A DNA stretch of 64,000 nucleotides. Origin: a phage. Under the pieces are notes generated by a model, which did not search any database, was not told the DNA's origin, and was given only the letters and a program-made list of their open reading frames with translations. This document shows, piece after piece, positions 1,304 to 36,997 of this stretch; position 1 is the stretch's first letter; every line of letters starts with the position of its first letter. The translations under genes were made by a program, and so were the position numbers. The stretch lies in sequence record PZ452596.1. One strand, written 5' to 3'.

Positions 1304-2986
1304 TTAAACCATTACAGTAAATCGACCAACTTTCTTCATTTGAAGATGCTGACCATATGCTTGCGGGTCATGGTCTCTATGTGAAATAACAAAAACATTA
1401 GTATTTTTTAAACTATCTAAAATAGTTGAAATAGCTTTTACACCTTCAACGTCGGTCGCTGAATCAAAAACTTCATCAAGAATTAGTGTGTTTATTTTAA
1501 CACCTGAAACTTTTTCAGCAATATCACGCCAAGTAAATAAAAGAGCAATATCAATTCGTGCTTTTTCACCTTGACTGAATGAAGCATAACTAAAATCTTC
1601 ACGACCACGGGATTTAATTGTCTCATTAAATTCTTCATCTAATGTAAACACATAATCCGCTTCCATTATTTTAAGATAATGGTTAATCTGCTTATTAAAT
1701 AATGGAATGTACTTTTTAATAATAGCACCTTTAATACCAGAATCTTTGAGCATATCAGTCAAAATTCCTCGGTGGTATTTTTCCATTACTAAATTAGTTT
1801 TTGTCTTAACAATTTTATCAAGTTCTTCTTGAAGCAATGCTATTTCATCAGCGTGGTCAATAAACTCAGAAGATGCTTTTTCTATAGCCGCTTTAACTTT
1901 TTTAGCTTTATCTACCGTCGTGATTAGAGATTGCTTTTTATTGCGAATATCATTTGCCAACGACTGTTGGGTTTTAATATTATCTCGGTATTCATCAACA
2001 AGAACTTTTAAATTATCACGATGCGTTGAAAGCTGTTCAAATGAATGTGTGCATTCAGAAACTTTATCTTTAATTTTAGAAACAACTTTATCACCGGAAC
2101 TTAATTGTGACAAACAGGTTGGGCATAATCCACCTTCGTGATACATATTAATGACTTTATTATACGAGTCAATTTTTGATTTAATTAAAACTGCTTCTTG
2201 ACCGATTTTATTAAATGCATCAGTCGGGTCTTCATCCAAAACAATATTAACTAATCTTTCATTAGCTTCTTCTATTTCCGATTTTAGCGTTCTAGCTTCT
2301 TTTGCCAAATCATCATACATATTTTGAAGACGTGTAAGGTTGTCACCCGTTAATTTTTTCTGGCGTTCAACGTTATCATTATATATTTTAATTTGTTGGA
2401 TAATACTATCTTTTTTAACATCAAGCACTTGGTTTTGTGAATTTAATTCACGTATTAGTGCTTTATTAAGCTTATCCATTTCAGCTAATGTTCCTACCTC
2501 GAGCAGGTCTTCCACAAGCTTTCTTCGCGCAGGGGTCGACAAACCCATGAAAGGGGTATACCCTGCTGTACCAAGGACAACAATCTGCTTGAAACTGGCA
2601 TATGACATTCCGATAAGCTGTTCAAATTCTGCTTGGAAATCTTTACTGCTGGCAGATTCATTAAGACGTGTACCGTTAACGGTGATTTCGAAAACGTTCG
2701 GTTTTTGTCCTCTTTTGATATAGTACTTTTTCTCATCATATTCCATCCACAGTTCAACTAAAAGTTCTTTCTTATTTGTGCTGTTTATTAATTGGCCTTT
2801 CTTTACGTCACGAAATGGTTTGCCAAAAAGCCCAAATGTGATGGCTTCTAACATAGTAGACTTACCACCGCCATTTCGGCCAGTAATAAGAGTTTTTTGA
2901 ACCTTATCTAATTGAATGTCAATAGGATTTCCACCTACTGACATTATATTTTGATACCTAACTCGGTTTAGTTTAAAATTCTTCAC
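1304..2986 (-). CDS. 46: gp46 recombination endonuclease subunit (Rad50/SbcC-like ATPase)
   Basis: 560 aa; Walker A GRNGGGKSTMLEAI; C-terminal LILDEVFDS signature/Walker B; long coiled-coil middle. Confidence 0.92.
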   Translation of the reverse strand: MKNFKLNRVRYQNIMSVGGNPIDIQLDKVQKTLITGRNGGGKSTMLEAITFGLFGKPFRDVKKGQLINSTNKKELLVELWMEYDEKKYYIKRGQKPNVFEITVNGTRLNESASSKDFQAEFEQLIGMSYASFKQIVVLGTAGYTPFMGLSTPARRKLVEDLLEVGTLAEMDKLNKALIRELNSQNQVLDVKKDSIIQQIKIYNDNVERQKKLTGDNLTRLQNMYDDLAKEARTLKSEIEEANERLVNIVLDEDPTDAFNKIGQEAVLIKSKIDSYNKVINMYHEGGLCPTCLSQLSSGDKVVSKIKDKVSECTHSFEQLSTHRDNLKVLVDEYRDNIKTQQSLANDIRNKKQSLITTVDKAKKVKAAIEKASSEFIDHADEIALLQEELDKIVKTKTNLVMEKYHRGILTDMLKDSGIKGAIIKKYIPLFNKQINHYLKIMEADYVFTLDEEFNETIKSRGREDFSYASFSQGEKARIDIALLFTWRDIAEKVSGVKINTLILDEVFDSATDVEGVKAISTILDSLKNTNVFVISHRDHDPQAYGQHLQMKKVGRFTVMV

Positions 2987-3195
2987 AAAAGATTCCTTTT
3001 AATGTATCTTTTAGACCATTCTATCATATCATCATAATCTAAAAAGTATTCATCAAATTCAGCCATGCAAACAACGCCTTGTGCTGTTTTTGATGTAATG
3101 TAAATTATTCCAACATATCTAGAATCTTCTTCGATATAATCAATATTTGCTATGAATTCATCATTAATGTCAAATGTCGAAAACTTCACAGTATG
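2983..3195 (-). CDS. hypothetical protein (46.1-like by position)
   Basis: ORF between 46 and 47; start moved to ATG 3195 behind AAGGA RBS (track ORF starts at an upstream alternative codon). Confidence 0.45.
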   Translation of the reverse strand, partial: HTVKFSTFDINDEFIANIDYIEEDSRYVGIIYITSKTAQGVVCMAEFDEYFLDYDDMIEWSKRYIKRNLL

Positions 3196-3433
3196 CATCC
3201 TTAATACAAGATACAGCCATATCTCGCAATGATTTAGGTGTGTCATTATCTAAAATGTTGAAGTTAAAAGATACAGCCCAGTCAGTGCAGACCGTAACCT
3301 TTTTAATACAATTATCTTCAACCTCTAACGGTTCAAACCAATATTCAATAATTTCTTTATGCCCAATATCATCCTTTACTTCGCATTCAAAATGCTGACT
3401 CATCATAACATTTTTAAATTCATCAAAAGTCAT
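3170..3433 (-). CDS. hypothetical protein (46.2-like by position)
   Basis: 87-aa ORF, overlapping stop/start with gene 47. Confidence 0.5.
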   Translation of the reverse strand: MTFDEFKNVMMSQHFECEVKDDIGHKEIIEYWFEPLEVEDNCIKKVTVCTDWAVSFNFNILDNDTPKSLRDMAVSCIKDAYCEVFDI

Positions 3434-4449
3434 TGTGTTGCCTCTACATATAGCTGATTTGCATATTGAATAAGTGCTTCACGATCAGAATCAGTGATGT
3501 CTGGAATTGCATTAATATACTCTTCCATTAATGTCTGAAGCGATTGAACTTCAACTTCTTCACTGTCATCTGACTCAACAGAGTTATCAATCTTTGACAC
3601 AACTCGTAATGAATGCACAACTTTTTCTAGTTCAGATTCGAACTTCGTCAGATTTTTGTCTACTTCAGTTACTATAACACGTACTGATAGATTTGTAAAA
3701 TCTTTATAGTCAATTTTTCCCTTAAATGGATAATGAATTCGACGATGCCAGGTAGTGTTGTTTGGAATAAATTCCATTCGTTCTGTTTCTGTATCAAACA
3801 TCCAGAACCCACGAGGGTCATTCTCGTCACCTGCAGTTAGTGTCCATGGTGTCCCAATATATCTGACGTTAGCAGCCTCAGAGATAGTATGGAAGTGACC
3901 AGACCACACCTCTTTATAAGTCTTAAGGAAATCAGGTTCAAGACCGTGAGATTTCATTCCTTTATAAAAATAAAATCCATTCAGTTCCCAATGACCAACA
4001 CAAAAAGAAGCAGATGAAGTTTTGATATGCTCAAGAATTTCACCAGTATTTTCTTCGCACATCCAAGGAATCAAATCAATCAAACACCCGTCAAAATCTA
4101 CTGTAGTAGGCTTATCATATACTTTAACATTAGGATATTTAGCCAAAAGCTCAGTAGAGGCATTTGGATGCATTACATTTTTATAGTGGAGATCGTGATT
4201 TCCTACAATAGTATGTAATGTAATTCCAGCATCATCAAGCGTTTGAACTATTTCACGGGCGAACTCCATAGTTTTGTGTGTGATTGCTTTTCGCACATCA
4301 AAAATATCACCGTATTGAATCCAGGTAGTAATTCCATTTTTCTTAGAATATTCTATTGCTTGTTTAATTCCATCAATTTGAATACCGCGAATCCACTCAT
4401 CATCAGCTTTAACGCCTAAATGCCAATCACCTAAATTTAAAATTTTCAT
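3430..4449 (-). CDS. 47: gp47 recombination exonuclease subunit (Mre11/SbcD-like phosphoesterase)
   Basis: 339 aa; metallophosphoesterase motifs (GDWHLG, GNHD, GHWE). Confidence 0.92.
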   Translation of the reverse strand: MKILNLGDWHLGVKADDEWIRGIQIDGIKQAIEYSKKNGITTWIQYGDIFDVRKAITHKTMEFAREIVQTLDDAGITLHTIVGNHDLHYKNVMHPNASTELLAKYPNVKVYDKPTTVDFDGCLIDLIPWMCEENTGEILEHIKTSSASFCVGHWELNGFYFYKGMKSHGLEPDFLKTYKEVWSGHFHTISEAANVRYIGTPWTLTAGDENDPRGFWMFDTETERMEFIPNNTTWHRRIHYPFKGKIDYKDFTNLSVRVIVTEVDKNLTKFESELEKVVHSLRVVSKIDNSVESDDSEEVEVQSLQTLMEEYINAIPDITDSDREALIQYANQLYVEATQ

Positions 4450-33064: not shown

Positions 33065-33083
<19 letters not shown>

Positions 33084-33553
33084 TCAGTGATAAAGTTATT
33101 TAAATTTTGAGTATATTTCTTTTCATCAAAAATCTTTTGCTGTCTGCGTAACCGCCATGGCATTTCAATGAACGCGCACCATATCCCAGATAATATTGCT
33201 GCTGTCAAAATATTAACAAGCATAATTAAAAGAATCCAATCTCCTATTCTGTCTATTGGATTTTTTATAAAAAAGTAAAATACGAATGATGTCACAGGAA
33301 GACTAATAATATACCACAGAATCATAATTTTATCTGTGAACCAATCAGCGTTCGTTAACTTAGCGCGACCATTATGAATACACACGAATTTATCATCTGT
33401 TATAATAGATGGCTTAGCTGCTTGATATCCCATTCTAAACTCCCTAATCAACAAATTTTTCATATCTTCGGAACAACCATTCCAGTCAACTCTATCAACT
33501 GAAATGCCATCATCCCCATCATCTAAATCATACCAGCGAGTTTTTAAAATCAT
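33065..33553 (-). CDS. membrane protein, family with conserved C-terminal motif
   Basis: 162 aa; two hydrophobic helices; ends NNFITECRKLK. Confidence 0.5.
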
Positions 33554-33912
33554 TTAATTTTCCTACAATCACTCACAAACTCTTCCATTGATTCTTTTTC
33601 AATATAAGACATGTAGCTATTATATTCTTTTAATTGTATTTTGTAATCTTTTTTTCTTTGCCAATTTATTTTAAAATTATCATAATGAAAATATAACATG
33701 GTACCAAAGAATGAAAATAATGAAATAATTTTAGTATAGTGAAGTTCACTCCAAACTTCTATTATATTTACTGTGCCGTCAATGTTTAAAATAAGACAGT
33801 CAATTAACAATCCAAAAAGACTACCCGCAAGAGCTGCAGCCAACGCCACAGCAAAAATTAAAAATGACTCAGGAAGCGAATATTTGACTTTATTTAGTTT
33901 TGGCTTTTGCAT
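33550..33912 (-). CDS. membrane protein, family with conserved C-terminal motif
   Basis: 120 aa; hydrophobic helices; ends EEFVSDCRKIK. Confidence 0.5.
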   Translation of the reverse strand: MQKPKLNKVKYSLPESFLIFAVALAAALAGSLFGLLIDCLILNIDGTVNIIEVWSELHYTKIISLFSFFGTMLYFHYDNFKINWQRKKDYKIQLKEYNSYMSYIEKESMEEFVSDCRKIK

Positions 33913-34286
33913 CGTGATTCCTTAACAAATTTCATAATTTCATCAAATTCATACGCAGCAAGTTTAAGCTGATGTTCCTTTTTAATCTTTTTACACTGTG
34001 CTTTCCAATCACGTACGCGTTTACGATAATGCCTTCCTTGATACCAGTATCCTACCCAATTTACAGGTACTAATAAAAATGGAACTATCATTGGAAGAAT
34101 TAGTGTTGACGCAAATATTATATTAGATTCAATATTAGTCATAACATCTATAACTATTCCAACCCCCAGTAGAATTACAAATGATACAGCTATTACAGGA
34201 CCTATTAATACATCAGTAGAAATTATCTGACGCTTTAATTCATACTTTAAGGGTTTACTTGGAAGATACATTGATGGCTTTGACAT
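33894..34286 (-). CDS. membrane protein, family with conserved C-terminal motif
   Basis: 130 aa; hydrophobic helices; ends MKFVKESRCKSQN. Confidence 0.5.
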   Translation of the reverse strand: MSKPSMYLPSKPLKYELKRQIISTDVLIGPVIAVSFVILLGVGIVIDVMTNIESNIIFASTLILPMIVPFLLVPVNWVGYWYQGRHYRKRVRDWKAQCKKIKKEHQLKLAAYEFDEIMKFVKESRCKSQN

Positions 34287-34863: not shown

Positions 34864-34884
34864 TCCTACTTACTCCAAGTAATA

Positions 34885-34898
34885 GGGGCCGAAGCCCC
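34885..34898 (-). terminator. hairpin GGGGCCGAAGCCCC
   Basis: 5-bp GC stem with 4-nt loop then T-rich tract, 3' of the 34905 gene. Confidence 0.45.
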
Positions 34899-34904
34899 TT
34901 ATCA

Positions 34905-35498
34905 TTATTTCAGAGAATTAATATATTCCTGAACATCGGCAGAGGTAGTTTCAACCCCAGAAATATTACCATTAAAGGTTTCAACTCGAGCAAGAGTATC
35001 TTCAATATCAACCTTAGTCAGTGCTGCAATTTCAACTACATCATCAGCAGTACTAATTCCGAGAGCATTTGCTGCGCGAGTTTCACGGATATATTCCAAT
35101 TTAACTGCAAGTTCTTGACGAGCATCATCTAACTCAACTACTTTCTTGGCGATTTCAATTCGCATTTCAGCATACCCATCAGCTTTAGTAGTCAACTGCT
35201 CAGCTGTTCGACGATATAGCAAACCGAGCTTAGCGTGCATTGTTACATCTTGACCTTCAGAAAGGAGCTTGCGAATTTCGCGCTCTTTTGATTCGGCTTG
35301 TCGATTCTTTTCAATAACAAGTTCACGAATACGTTTTTCTTCATTAATAGATTTAACAGAAGCAGTTTTTAGGTCTTTAATTTTATCAAGTAATTTTGCT
35401 GCTGCAGCAGTGTACTGTTCTTCAACAGATAGATTTTTAGCCATAGCAGAACCAAGTTTAGTGCGAATAAACTCAACAATTTTCTTCAGCATGTTCAT
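34905..35498 (-). CDS. coiled-coil protein, PspA/IM30-like (tentative)
   Basis: 197 aa; heptad-rich helical sequence with DTLAR segment; resemblance to PspA family is by eye only. Confidence 0.4.
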
Positions 35499-35542
35499 AG
35501 CATTTCCTTTAGTTAATTAAGGGTTTTATAATCCGTGGGAGT

Positions 35543-35572
35543 ATTATACTCTACTCCCAAGAGTTTGTAAAC
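35543..35572 (-). promoter_or_regulatory. early promoter
   Basis: Minus strand GTTTAC, 18 nt, GAGTATAAT; -10 lies within palindrome GGGAGTA...TACTCCC. Confidence 0.55.
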
Positions 35573-35930: not shown

Positions 35931-35961
35931 CATAATATCTCAATCATGAGCCTGTGTAAAC
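35931..35961 (-). promoter_or_regulatory. early promoter
   Basis: Minus strand GTTTAC, 19 nt, TATTAT inside palindrome GGCTCATGA...TATGAGCC. Confidence 0.5.
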
Positions 35962-36268: not shown

Positions 36269-36298
36269 ATAGTACCATGGAAGGACAAGGATGTAAAC
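36269..36298 (-). promoter_or_regulatory. early promoter
   Basis: Minus strand TTTTCACAAAACG-GTTTAC, 18 nt, TGGTACTAT. Confidence 0.55.
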
Positions 36299-36427
36299 CG
36301 TTTTGTGAAAAAATTTTTAAAAAGTTTTGGGGAATTCTAGGGCAGGGAGAGGAAATTAAAAGGTAGGATAATATATTATAAAGGGTATAAACTAAATGAT
36401 GCCTAGAGAGGCCCGGAAAGGCCTAGA

Positions 36428-36462
36428 TACCAAAAAGCCCCAACCTTTCGGCTAGGGCTAAG
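36428..36462 (-). repeat. 35-bp direct repeat copy A containing terminator hairpin
   Basis: TACCAAAAAGCCCCAACCTTTCGGCTAGGGCTAAG; differs from copy B at one stem position. Confidence 0.7.
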
Positions 36463-36466
36463 AATG

Positions 36467-36928
36467 TTATTTGATTTGTTTAGCAGACCAAATGCGGTCT
36501 TTGATGATTTTTTGGAGGTCTTCAACATACTCTAGGTCATGAGCATGTGGATTATCTTTGAAACTATGAGCTCGCGCAAGTTTCTGGCCTTCGGTCTTAA
36601 TTATCAAAAGTTCTTTAAGAATTGCTTCATACCTAGAGATAATTCCTTTAGCAATATTTTTTTCTTGTGCTGCTTTAGGGTCAGCCTTAGGAGCAGGTTT
36701 ACCAGAAGGTTTTTCGAAAGCCGCGCCAGTAGCAACCAGGCTTTTCCAGGCGGTGGTAACATAGTTACCCACAAAGCCTTCAGCTCTCATATCGTCGTAG
36801 AACTTGTACCGAGATTCGTCAGAAGCATCTTTATAAGAATATTTACCAGCTTTAATAGCAGCAGTTGCTACAGCGCGAACATCTGAAGCGGATGCTTCGG
36901 TCATTAAAAATTGAGCATAAGTTTTCAT
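36467..36928 (-). CDS. internal-protein-like gene with capsid targeting sequence, flanked by direct repeats
   Basis: 153 aa; N-terminus MKTYAQFLMTEA fits the internal-protein CTS; Ala/Lys/Pro-rich middle; sits between repeats A and B. Confidence 0.55.
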   Translation of the reverse strand: MKTYAQFLMTEASASDVRAVATAAIKAGKYSYKDASDESRYKFYDDMRAEGFVGNYVTTAWKSLVATGAAFEKPSGKPAPKADPKAAQEKNIAKGIISRYEAILKELLIIKTEGQKLARAHSFKDNPHAHDLEYVEDLQKIIKDRIWSAKQIK

Positions 36929-36962
36929 TGTTATTTCCTGTGTTAATTAACTCATCTATTTA

Positions 36963-36997
36963 TACCAAAAAGCCCCAACCTTTCGGCTGGGGCTAAG
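36963..36997 (-). repeat. 35-bp direct repeat copy B; rho-independent terminator of the tRNA/small-RNA transcript
   Basis: Minus strand AGCCCCAGCC-GAAA-GGTTGGGGCT followed by TTTTT. Confidence 0.7.

Follow-up and report, generated by a model that had tools for sequence, protein, structure and literature searches.

The e.6 gene of phage RB27 encodes a compact, highly divergent PspA/IM30-like protein

PspA takes its name from its induction by phage. Together with IM30/Vipp1, its counterpart in cyanobacteria and chloroplasts, it forms the PspA/IM30/Vipp1 family, which makes up the bacterial part of the ESCRT-III superfamily. In E. coli PspA, the part that contacts PspF consists of helix alpha0 and helices alpha1–alpha3, and this part was crystallised as PspA 1–144 (4WHE). 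Alpha0 is the membrane anchor of both PspA and Vipp1, and it senses anionic lipids (PMC12358876). The binding of PspA alpha0 to membranes, and the protection that PspA gives to membranes, are established knowledge (PMC12358876; PMC8281802). Among phages, the ‘Jug’ jumbo phages of the gut likewise carry a pspA-like gene that is transcribed (PMC12880540). The setting differs, however: the ‘Jug’ gene is part of a terD stress-gene operon, and its carriers are Bacteroides phages of 360–402 kb. When we looked for canonical PspA in phage genomes by tblastn, only two unannotated metagenomic contigs were found; phage records are thus all but devoid of canonical PspA.

T4 is the reference lytic phage, and about half of its genes are without an assigned function. 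The kinship of one of these, e.6, with PspA is already known, from one sentence and two GenBank product names. The sentence occurs in a 2021 genome announcement, in which HHpred aligned gp163 of Metamorpho, a ‘homolog of T4 protein e.6’, at 99.9% with E. coli PspA (4WHE_A) (PMC7862958). The product names are ‘shock protein A’, for the orthologue in MN106245 (Klebsiella phage EI), and ‘shock protein A transcrption regulator’, for that in MZ571829 (vB_KpnM-VAC36). Metamorpho gp163 is 75.6% identical to a member of the e.6 family (P0017) and belongs to the same family (PHROG 1203), and none of these three proteins differs in substance from e.6 of RB27. The PspA label has not been propagated: T4 RefSeq, RB27, PHROGs and Pfam list the e.6 family as unknown. 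We found no functional study of e.6 in the literature, and no mention of phage-encoded homologues in the PSP/ESCRT-III overview literature that we searched.

The gene lies on the minus strand of the window, by which we mean the whole 64,000-nucleotide stretch of phage DNA that was analysed (Table 1). Record KM607000.1 (phage RB27) matches the window at 100% identity over 2.4 kb, and annotates the open reading frame as RB27_133, ‘hypothetical protein’, with the note ‘e.6’. The T4 protein (NP_049742; UniProt P39224) is 98% identical to it. The family to which RB27 e.6 belongs is PHROG 1203 (‘unknown function’; E 1e-87), and tblastn finds members in 1,107 of 50,697 phage records, the hosts of which include Escherichia, Klebsiella, Shigella, Aeromonas, Enterobacter, Yersinia, Citrobacter, Salmonella and Serratia. 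Because of the PHROG match, the 1,107 records and the detection of the protein in T4 (see below), we consider e.6 to be a real, conserved gene; the open reading frame exists as the initial annotation described it.

Table 1. Position of e.6, of its expression signals and of the predicted parts of its product within the window
Feature	Position	Strand	Remarks
e.6 orthologue CDS (RB27_133)	34905..35498	minus	ATG start, 197 aa; PspA/IM30-like protein
Shine-Dalgarno AAGGA	35505..35509	minus	6 nt before e.6 ATG; read from sequence
Promoter, sigma-70/T4-early type, GTTTACA-17-TATAAT	35543..35571	minus	Directly upstream of e.6; 11/12 matches
Stem GGGAGUA/UACUCCC, promoter -10 box in loop	35520-35575	minus	-14.1 kcal/mol, z -2.84
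GC-rich UUCG-tetraloop hairpin AGGGGCUUCGGCCCCU	34884..34899	minus	5 nt after e.6 stop; -15 kcal/mol, z -2.5
Alpha0 equivalent, residues 2-22	35433..35495	minus	AlphaFold helix; aligned residue for residue with PspA 1-22
First hairpin arm (alpha1 equivalent), residues 25-80	35259..35426	minus	Block pLDDT about 79-98, N-terminal end lowest
Hairpin tip loop EGQDV, residues 81-85	35244..35258	minus	Length variation (indels) in the family falls here
Second hairpin arm (alpha2+3 equivalent), residues 86-145	35064..35243	minus	Contains the most conserved block
Two short helices (alpha4 equivalent), residues 151-174	34977..35048	minus	Helices 151-160/162 and 166-172/174; pLDDT 49-66
C-terminal helix, residues 186-196	34911..34943	minus	Global hhalign: opposite the alpha5 end of PspA/Vipp1, ‘ISEQLAQLK’/‘VEDELAALK’

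Several records of the family call for comment. Many orthologues carry the label ‘host specificity protein’ and one the label ‘recombination endonuclease subunit D12’; judging by our searches, which support neither, these are propagated annotation errors. In RB43 (NC_007023.1, ~2851–3447) the homologue is annotated at only 97 aa. The frame upstream of it keeps homology (tblastn, query 52–197) and is broken by stop codons; the interruption is either a pseudogene or an error of sequencing or annotation in the reference. One distant member, P0083, about 19–23% identical to RB27 e.6, comes from a 50.5-kb contig in a Proteus mirabilis deposit, the sole source that we encountered without a phage label. 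The contig may derive from a prophage, or from phage DNA that contaminated a bacterial assembly.

The link to PspA is remote, since the RB27 sequence alone matches no PspA model: PF04012 is absent from its hmmscan results against Pfam even at E<=10, NCBIfam gives nothing relevant, and phmmer against the PDB gives no PspA match. A profile of 31 close relatives (A1) went little further. Its matches to Vipp1 in the PDB are collinear but non-significant (E 1.9–4.7; query 4–143 with chain 4–145), and its hhalign probability is 10%. In a search of 1.84 billion cluster representatives it matched 45 proteins (the full-length ones ~195–209 aa, the others shorter fragments), with no canonical PspA among them. 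This close-relative profile is too weak, and the distant members of the family, which the same search recovered down to 18–25% identity to RB27 e.6, were needed for the PspA signal. They are included in a 39-member alignment (A2). The A2 profile, searched against the large protein library, returned no intermediates and no matches annotated as PF04012.

With matches this distant, the explanation to be weighed is that e.6 is a generic coiled coil, and that its resemblance to PspA and Vipp1 is an artefact of composition. The results at the level of the family argue otherwise. Scanned singly against Pfam, five of the 39 members match PspA_IM30 (PF04012; gathering threshold 33.9 bits). P0066 (39.0 bits, E 8.9e-10) and P0065 (35.1 bits, E 1.4e-8) lie above the threshold, and P0067 and P0068 reach 22 bits (E 1e-4); all four match the e.6 profile at full length, with E-values of 1e-20 to 1e-21 in the library of 1.84 billion proteins. 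For P0065 and P0066, PspA_IM30 is the sole Pfam family above its curated threshold, every other match having an E-value of 0.03 or worse, at least six orders of magnitude weaker. The PF04012 matches are all in register, with protein residues ~2–7 to 140–154 on profile positions 2–3 to 142–151 of 220 (6–146 on 2–143 for P0065 and P0066).

The same ranking is seen in the PDB. Searched against 177,635 distinct PDB sequences, the A2 HMM has Vipp1/PspA-family chains in eight of the nine top places, Vipp1 first (E 9.2e-5 to 2.2e-3; residues 1–146 with 1–147). Coiled coils abound in the PDB, and the ranking therefore doubles as a natural specificity control. For profile–profile comparison, we used a template of PspA and Vipp1 (A3) made of four Enterobacterales PspAs and Synechocystis Vipp1 from PDB alignments. 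The template is shallow, because searches of proteins and genome contigs gave only Enterobacterales PspAs of 78–100% identity. Between A2 and A3, hhalign gives a probability of 92.5% (E 4.8e-7, score 48.5, 171 columns), and in global mode it aligns e.6 1–197 with 1–214 at 93.1% (E 4.6e-8). Reversing the template or the query, or shuffling the columns (30 times) or the heptad blocks (30 times), brings the score down to 19.5 or less and the probability to 1.5% or less. Shuffles that preserve the heptads, in other words, do not preserve the match.

Predicted structure agrees with the profiles. Secondary structure was assigned by DSSP on two AlphaFold2 models, one built with A1 (mean pLDDT 74.9) and one with A2 (mean pLDDT 82.4; hairpin >90). 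Both contain the helices listed in Table 1, and ~85% of residues are helical. The description of the protein as almost entirely helix in the initial annotation is therefore borne out. The models show the helices folded into a hairpin, not a single uninterrupted coiled coil. The modelled topology is the alpha0/alpha1/alpha2+3/alpha4/alpha5 plan of PspA and Vipp1, with alpha4 and alpha5 shortened and predicted at low confidence. Conserved residues occur toward the end of the chain: T174 and F175 are invariant in close relatives, and Y192, S195, L196 and K197 are conserved at the C-terminus. When the models were compared by Foldseek with 350,542 PDB chains, Vipp1 filled the top 10 places for the first model and the top 11 for the second (best match: E 2.3e-4, probability 1.00). 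Next came the archaeal ESCRT-III protein CdvB2; the ESCRT-III scores are indistinguishable from those of generic hairpins.

Vipp1 ranks above all other PDB coiled coils both by HMM and by Foldseek; the alignments keep register from the first residue onward, and the helix break, the hairpin tip and the C-terminal tail all coincide; and an HHpred search made independently of ours points to PspA as well (PMC7862958). Taken with the reversed and shuffled controls, these observations make the generic coiled coil very improbable. We are highly confident that e.6 is genuinely homologous to PspA/IM30, though very far diverged. The PspA/IM30-like call had been made by eye, with profile searches and structure prediction proposed as its test. 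It fails for the single RB27 sequence and succeeds for family members and for profile–profile comparison: P0065 and P0066 pass the PF04012 threshold, the A2 HMM ranks Vipp1 first, hhalign probabilities are 92–93% with clean controls, and Vipp1 is at the top in Foldseek. Within PspA/IM30/Vipp1, the e.6 proteins make up a highly divergent clade that is confined to phages and compact in size (~200 aa).

One cue for the original call did not survive. This was the segment DTLAR, which occupies residues 167–171 of e.6. In most members of the e.6 family the same position reads DTLMR, DTLMK or TIISR. E. coli PspA also contains DTLAR, at 112–116 (DDTLAR, 111–116), and there it is part of helix alpha3. 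Pairwise BLAST and hhalign place ‘...DTLARVETF’ of e.6 on ‘LDEAMARFESF’ (159–169) in alpha4 of PspA, such that DTLAR itself is opposite ‘DEAMAR’ (160–165). Being unconserved in the family, and aligned to a different helix of PspA, DTLAR is rejected as a homologous motif; the resemblance is a coincidence. The positions that e.6 and PspA do have in common are the amphipathic alpha0, the break between helices at 22–25 (‘KAEDP’ in PspA, ‘KNxSxE’ in e.6), the tip of the hairpin at ~81–85, a ‘..R/K-V/F-E/D-T/S-F’ motif, and the C-terminal tail (‘ADVxEYLxSLK’ in e.6, ‘ISEQLAQLK’ or ‘VEDELAALK’ in the others).

How, then, does e.6 compare with its described relatives? It resembles E. coli PspA (4WHE; PF04012) in being collinear with it over the whole length, PspA 1–214, and in its architecture: an amphipathic alpha0 and a break, a hairpin of two helices of ~55–60 residues each, an alpha4 motif of the ‘A-R-x-E-x-F’ type, and a tail ending in ‘...L-x-x-L-K’. 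It differs in sequence, with an identity of about 13–24%; in size, being 25 residues shorter, with ~21 of these missing in alpha4–alpha5; and in the net charge of alpha0, which is 0 in PspA and +4 in e.6. It differs also in context, since e.6 occurs in a lytic phage without pspF, B, C, D or E as neighbours, and in control, since the pspA promoter depends on sigma-54 and PspF and the e.6 promoter is of the early sigma-70 type. Vipp1/IM30 (Synechocystis sll0617; 7O3W, 6ZVR, 8QFV) is the best PDB profile match and the top Foldseek match of e.6, shares the alpha0-to-alpha5 plan, and also has a positively charged alpha0 (+2). In contrast to Vipp1, e.6 has much shorter alpha4 and alpha5 and lacks the C-terminal alpha6 extension specific to Vipp1; the comparison is one of sequence and monomer models, and does not imply rings or rods. 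From ESCRT-III proper (CdvB/CdvB2, Snf7/CHMP), e.6 differs in showing neither a sequence-level signal to these proteins nor the Vps4/MIM-type partner logic.

Alpha0 deserves particular attention. Its hydrophobic moment in e.6 is 0.46, compared with 0.42–0.49 in PspA and 0.57–0.61 in Vipp1, and the net charge of residues 1–22 is positive, +1 to +5, in all 39 members of the family. To judge from its sequence, the more cationic alpha0 of e.6 would favour direct binding to an inner membrane rich in PG and cardiolipin, without partners. This bears on a further possibility, that e.6 has kept the PspA fold and put it to a non-membrane use, serving perhaps some early phage process as a scaffold or coiled-coil adaptor. 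Against it stand the cationic amphipathic N-terminal helix, which is retained across the family, and the full collinearity from alpha0 to alpha5, which is retained too and is what a membrane-binding polymer requires. We regard this re-purposing as unlikely.

e.6 belongs to a minus-strand block that comprises lysozyme e, nudE/e.1, e.2–e.8, one extra ORF, rnaC/rnaD and the tRNA cluster. Transmembrane segments are predicted in e.2 (two), e.3 (one) and e.4 (two), at 33065–34286, whereas e.5 to e.8 are soluble. The membrane-protein cluster that the initial annotation placed next to e.6 therefore exists, as e.2–e.4, but it is not directly adjacent, since the soluble e.5 lies between. These three small predicted inner-membrane proteins, of which e.4 has a net charge of +10, are encoded with overlapping start and stop codons, an arrangement that suggests translational coupling. 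Elsewhere in the block, two copies of a 36-nt terminator-like hairpin (36427–36462 and 36962–36997; 97% identical; AGCCCCAGCCGAAAGGTTGGGGCT plus a T-run, minus strand) flank the extra ORF, RB27_136 (36467–36928), to which no feature annotated in T4 from e.8 to rnaC corresponds. RB27_136 looks like a cassette that was inserted or exchanged between repeated regulatory stem-loops. Mobile promoter/stem-loop cassettes have been described for T4-type phages, and the arrangement is reminiscent of these.

The neighbours of e.6 are not constant. In RB43, nrdD and nrdG flank the homologue; in phage CC2 of Aeromonas, it has unrelated hypothetical genes around it; and in a 160-kb contig (L084), it stands between a PHROG-5022 gene and a membrane protein with one transmembrane segment, with ligase, helicase and UvsX nearby. 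Homologues of e.5 or e.7 are not adjacent to e.6 in any of the three. A conserved module of a PspA with membrane partners was considered, and rejected because neither e.5 and e.7 nor the transmembrane neighbours are kept in RB43, CC2 and L084. Nor do the transmembrane neighbours e.2–e.4 carry any Psp family assignment, and nothing resembling PspB, PspC or PspF was seen in the e.6 neighbourhoods. Since such partners are absent, e.6 probably acts alone or with host components. The locus is set apart from a Psp system of the PspF-ABCDE type by this absence of partner genes, and by an early-type, constitutive promoter.

That promoter is the best promoter-like match in the 5.2 kb that we scanned, and both of its hexamers, -35 and -10, are kept in T4 and AR1. 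The GTTTACA form is a signature of T4 early promoters. The stem that holds the -10 box in its loop is missing from the T4 version, which is 12 nt shorter here. Similar early-type sites occur on the same strand directly upstream of e.7 and e.8, at 35932–35960 (TTTACA-17-TATTAT) and 36269–36297 (TTTACA-17-TACTAT), and each small gene of the block seems to have an early promoter of its own. Downstream, no U-tract follows the UUCG hairpin on the minus strand; this hairpin, between e.6 and e.5, is probably a 3'-stabiliser of the mRNA or a weak terminator. In T4, time-resolved omics classes e.6 as an early RNA and a middle protein (PMC9697503 supplement), from which it follows that the e.6 protein is made. 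Of the two functions that the initial annotation had suggested, envelope stress and lysis timing, the latter is the weaker, because e.6 has its own early promoter and its adjacency to membrane proteins or to lysozyme e is not shared by distant relatives. Lysis timing by virtue of proximity to lysozyme e is unlikely, given the early promoter, the early RNA and a neighbourhood that is not conserved; only in the T4 lineage does e.6 lie near lysozyme e.

Early expression also fits a different kind of protein, one directed at the host rather than at the membrane. e.6 might be a mimic or decoy of PspA that binds host PspF, PspB/C or PspA itself (by co-polymerising or capping), and that silences or hijacks the phage-shock response. 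Its best-conserved similarity is in alpha0 and the alpha1–alpha3 hairpin, the C-terminal region for polymer contacts is shortened, and early synthesis comes when host responses would be pre-empted. T4, however, shuts off host transcription globally and fast, which seems to leave little need for a repressor devoted to the psp operon. An identity of ~13–24% to E. coli PspA does not suggest that the gene was captured from the host recently, and the family spans phages of Aeromonas, Klebsiella, Serratia, Yersinia and others, whose Psp systems differ. Because T4 halts host transcription in any case, and because the Psp systems of the hosts are not alike, we think a decoy quite improbable.

Our own inclination, and it is a slight one, is to see e.6 as a PspA homologue that protects the membrane. 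It is transcribed in the opening minutes of infection, from an early promoter of its own, and the protein accumulates by mid-infection. The cationic, amphipathic alpha0 would bind to the anionic inner membrane, and the alpha1/alpha2–3 hairpin, with the retained C-terminal helix, would make the protein polymerise with itself into an assembly that coats the membrane, as PspA and Vipp1 do. This assembly would seal or stabilise the inner membrane, and so preserve the proton-motive force during infection. The stresses that it might counter are penetration by the tail tube, superinfection and mass insertion of phage membrane proteins, and also the long lysis-inhibited state and host defences that depolarise the membrane. 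In doing so e.6 appears to act alone, without partners of the PspB/C/F type. The identity of the gene, its conservation, its homology and the predicted architecture of its product come from the present analysis, and early transcription and detection of the protein come from the work of others on T4; membrane binding, polymerisation and the protective role are what we infer from these. Confidence was assigned to each explanation independently; the explanations overlap, so the values do not sum to unity, and that for membrane protection includes the homology itself.

A more ambitious version of membrane protection is also conceivable. It portrays e.6 as an autonomous, partner-less viral machine of the ESCRT-III superfamily that reseals or armours the inner membrane within minutes of infection, and that does so at the site of DNA injection, during superinfection and lysis inhibition, or against abortive-infection effectors that depolarise the membrane. 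We put this forward tentatively, as something possible and still rather doubtful. If true, e.6 would be a phage counter-measure that works through membrane repair, and no virus-encoded protein of the PspA/ESCRT-III superfamily would have had its function defined before it.

What emerges is an early-expressed gene, related to PspA and Vipp1, that is conserved across over 1,000 of the sequenced Straboviridae genomes. That a phage has its own minimal, partner-free PspA suggests that the virus actively manages the integrity of the inner membrane. e.6 is a concrete candidate for explaining three old observations: the speed with which the membrane reseals after injection by T4, the tolerance of superinfection, and the upkeep of the proton-motive force up to programmed lysis. 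It points, too, to a possible way of evading defence systems that target membranes. And for the ESCRT-III field, a natural minimal variant of 197 aa could help to define which elements are sufficient for membrane binding and polymerisation.
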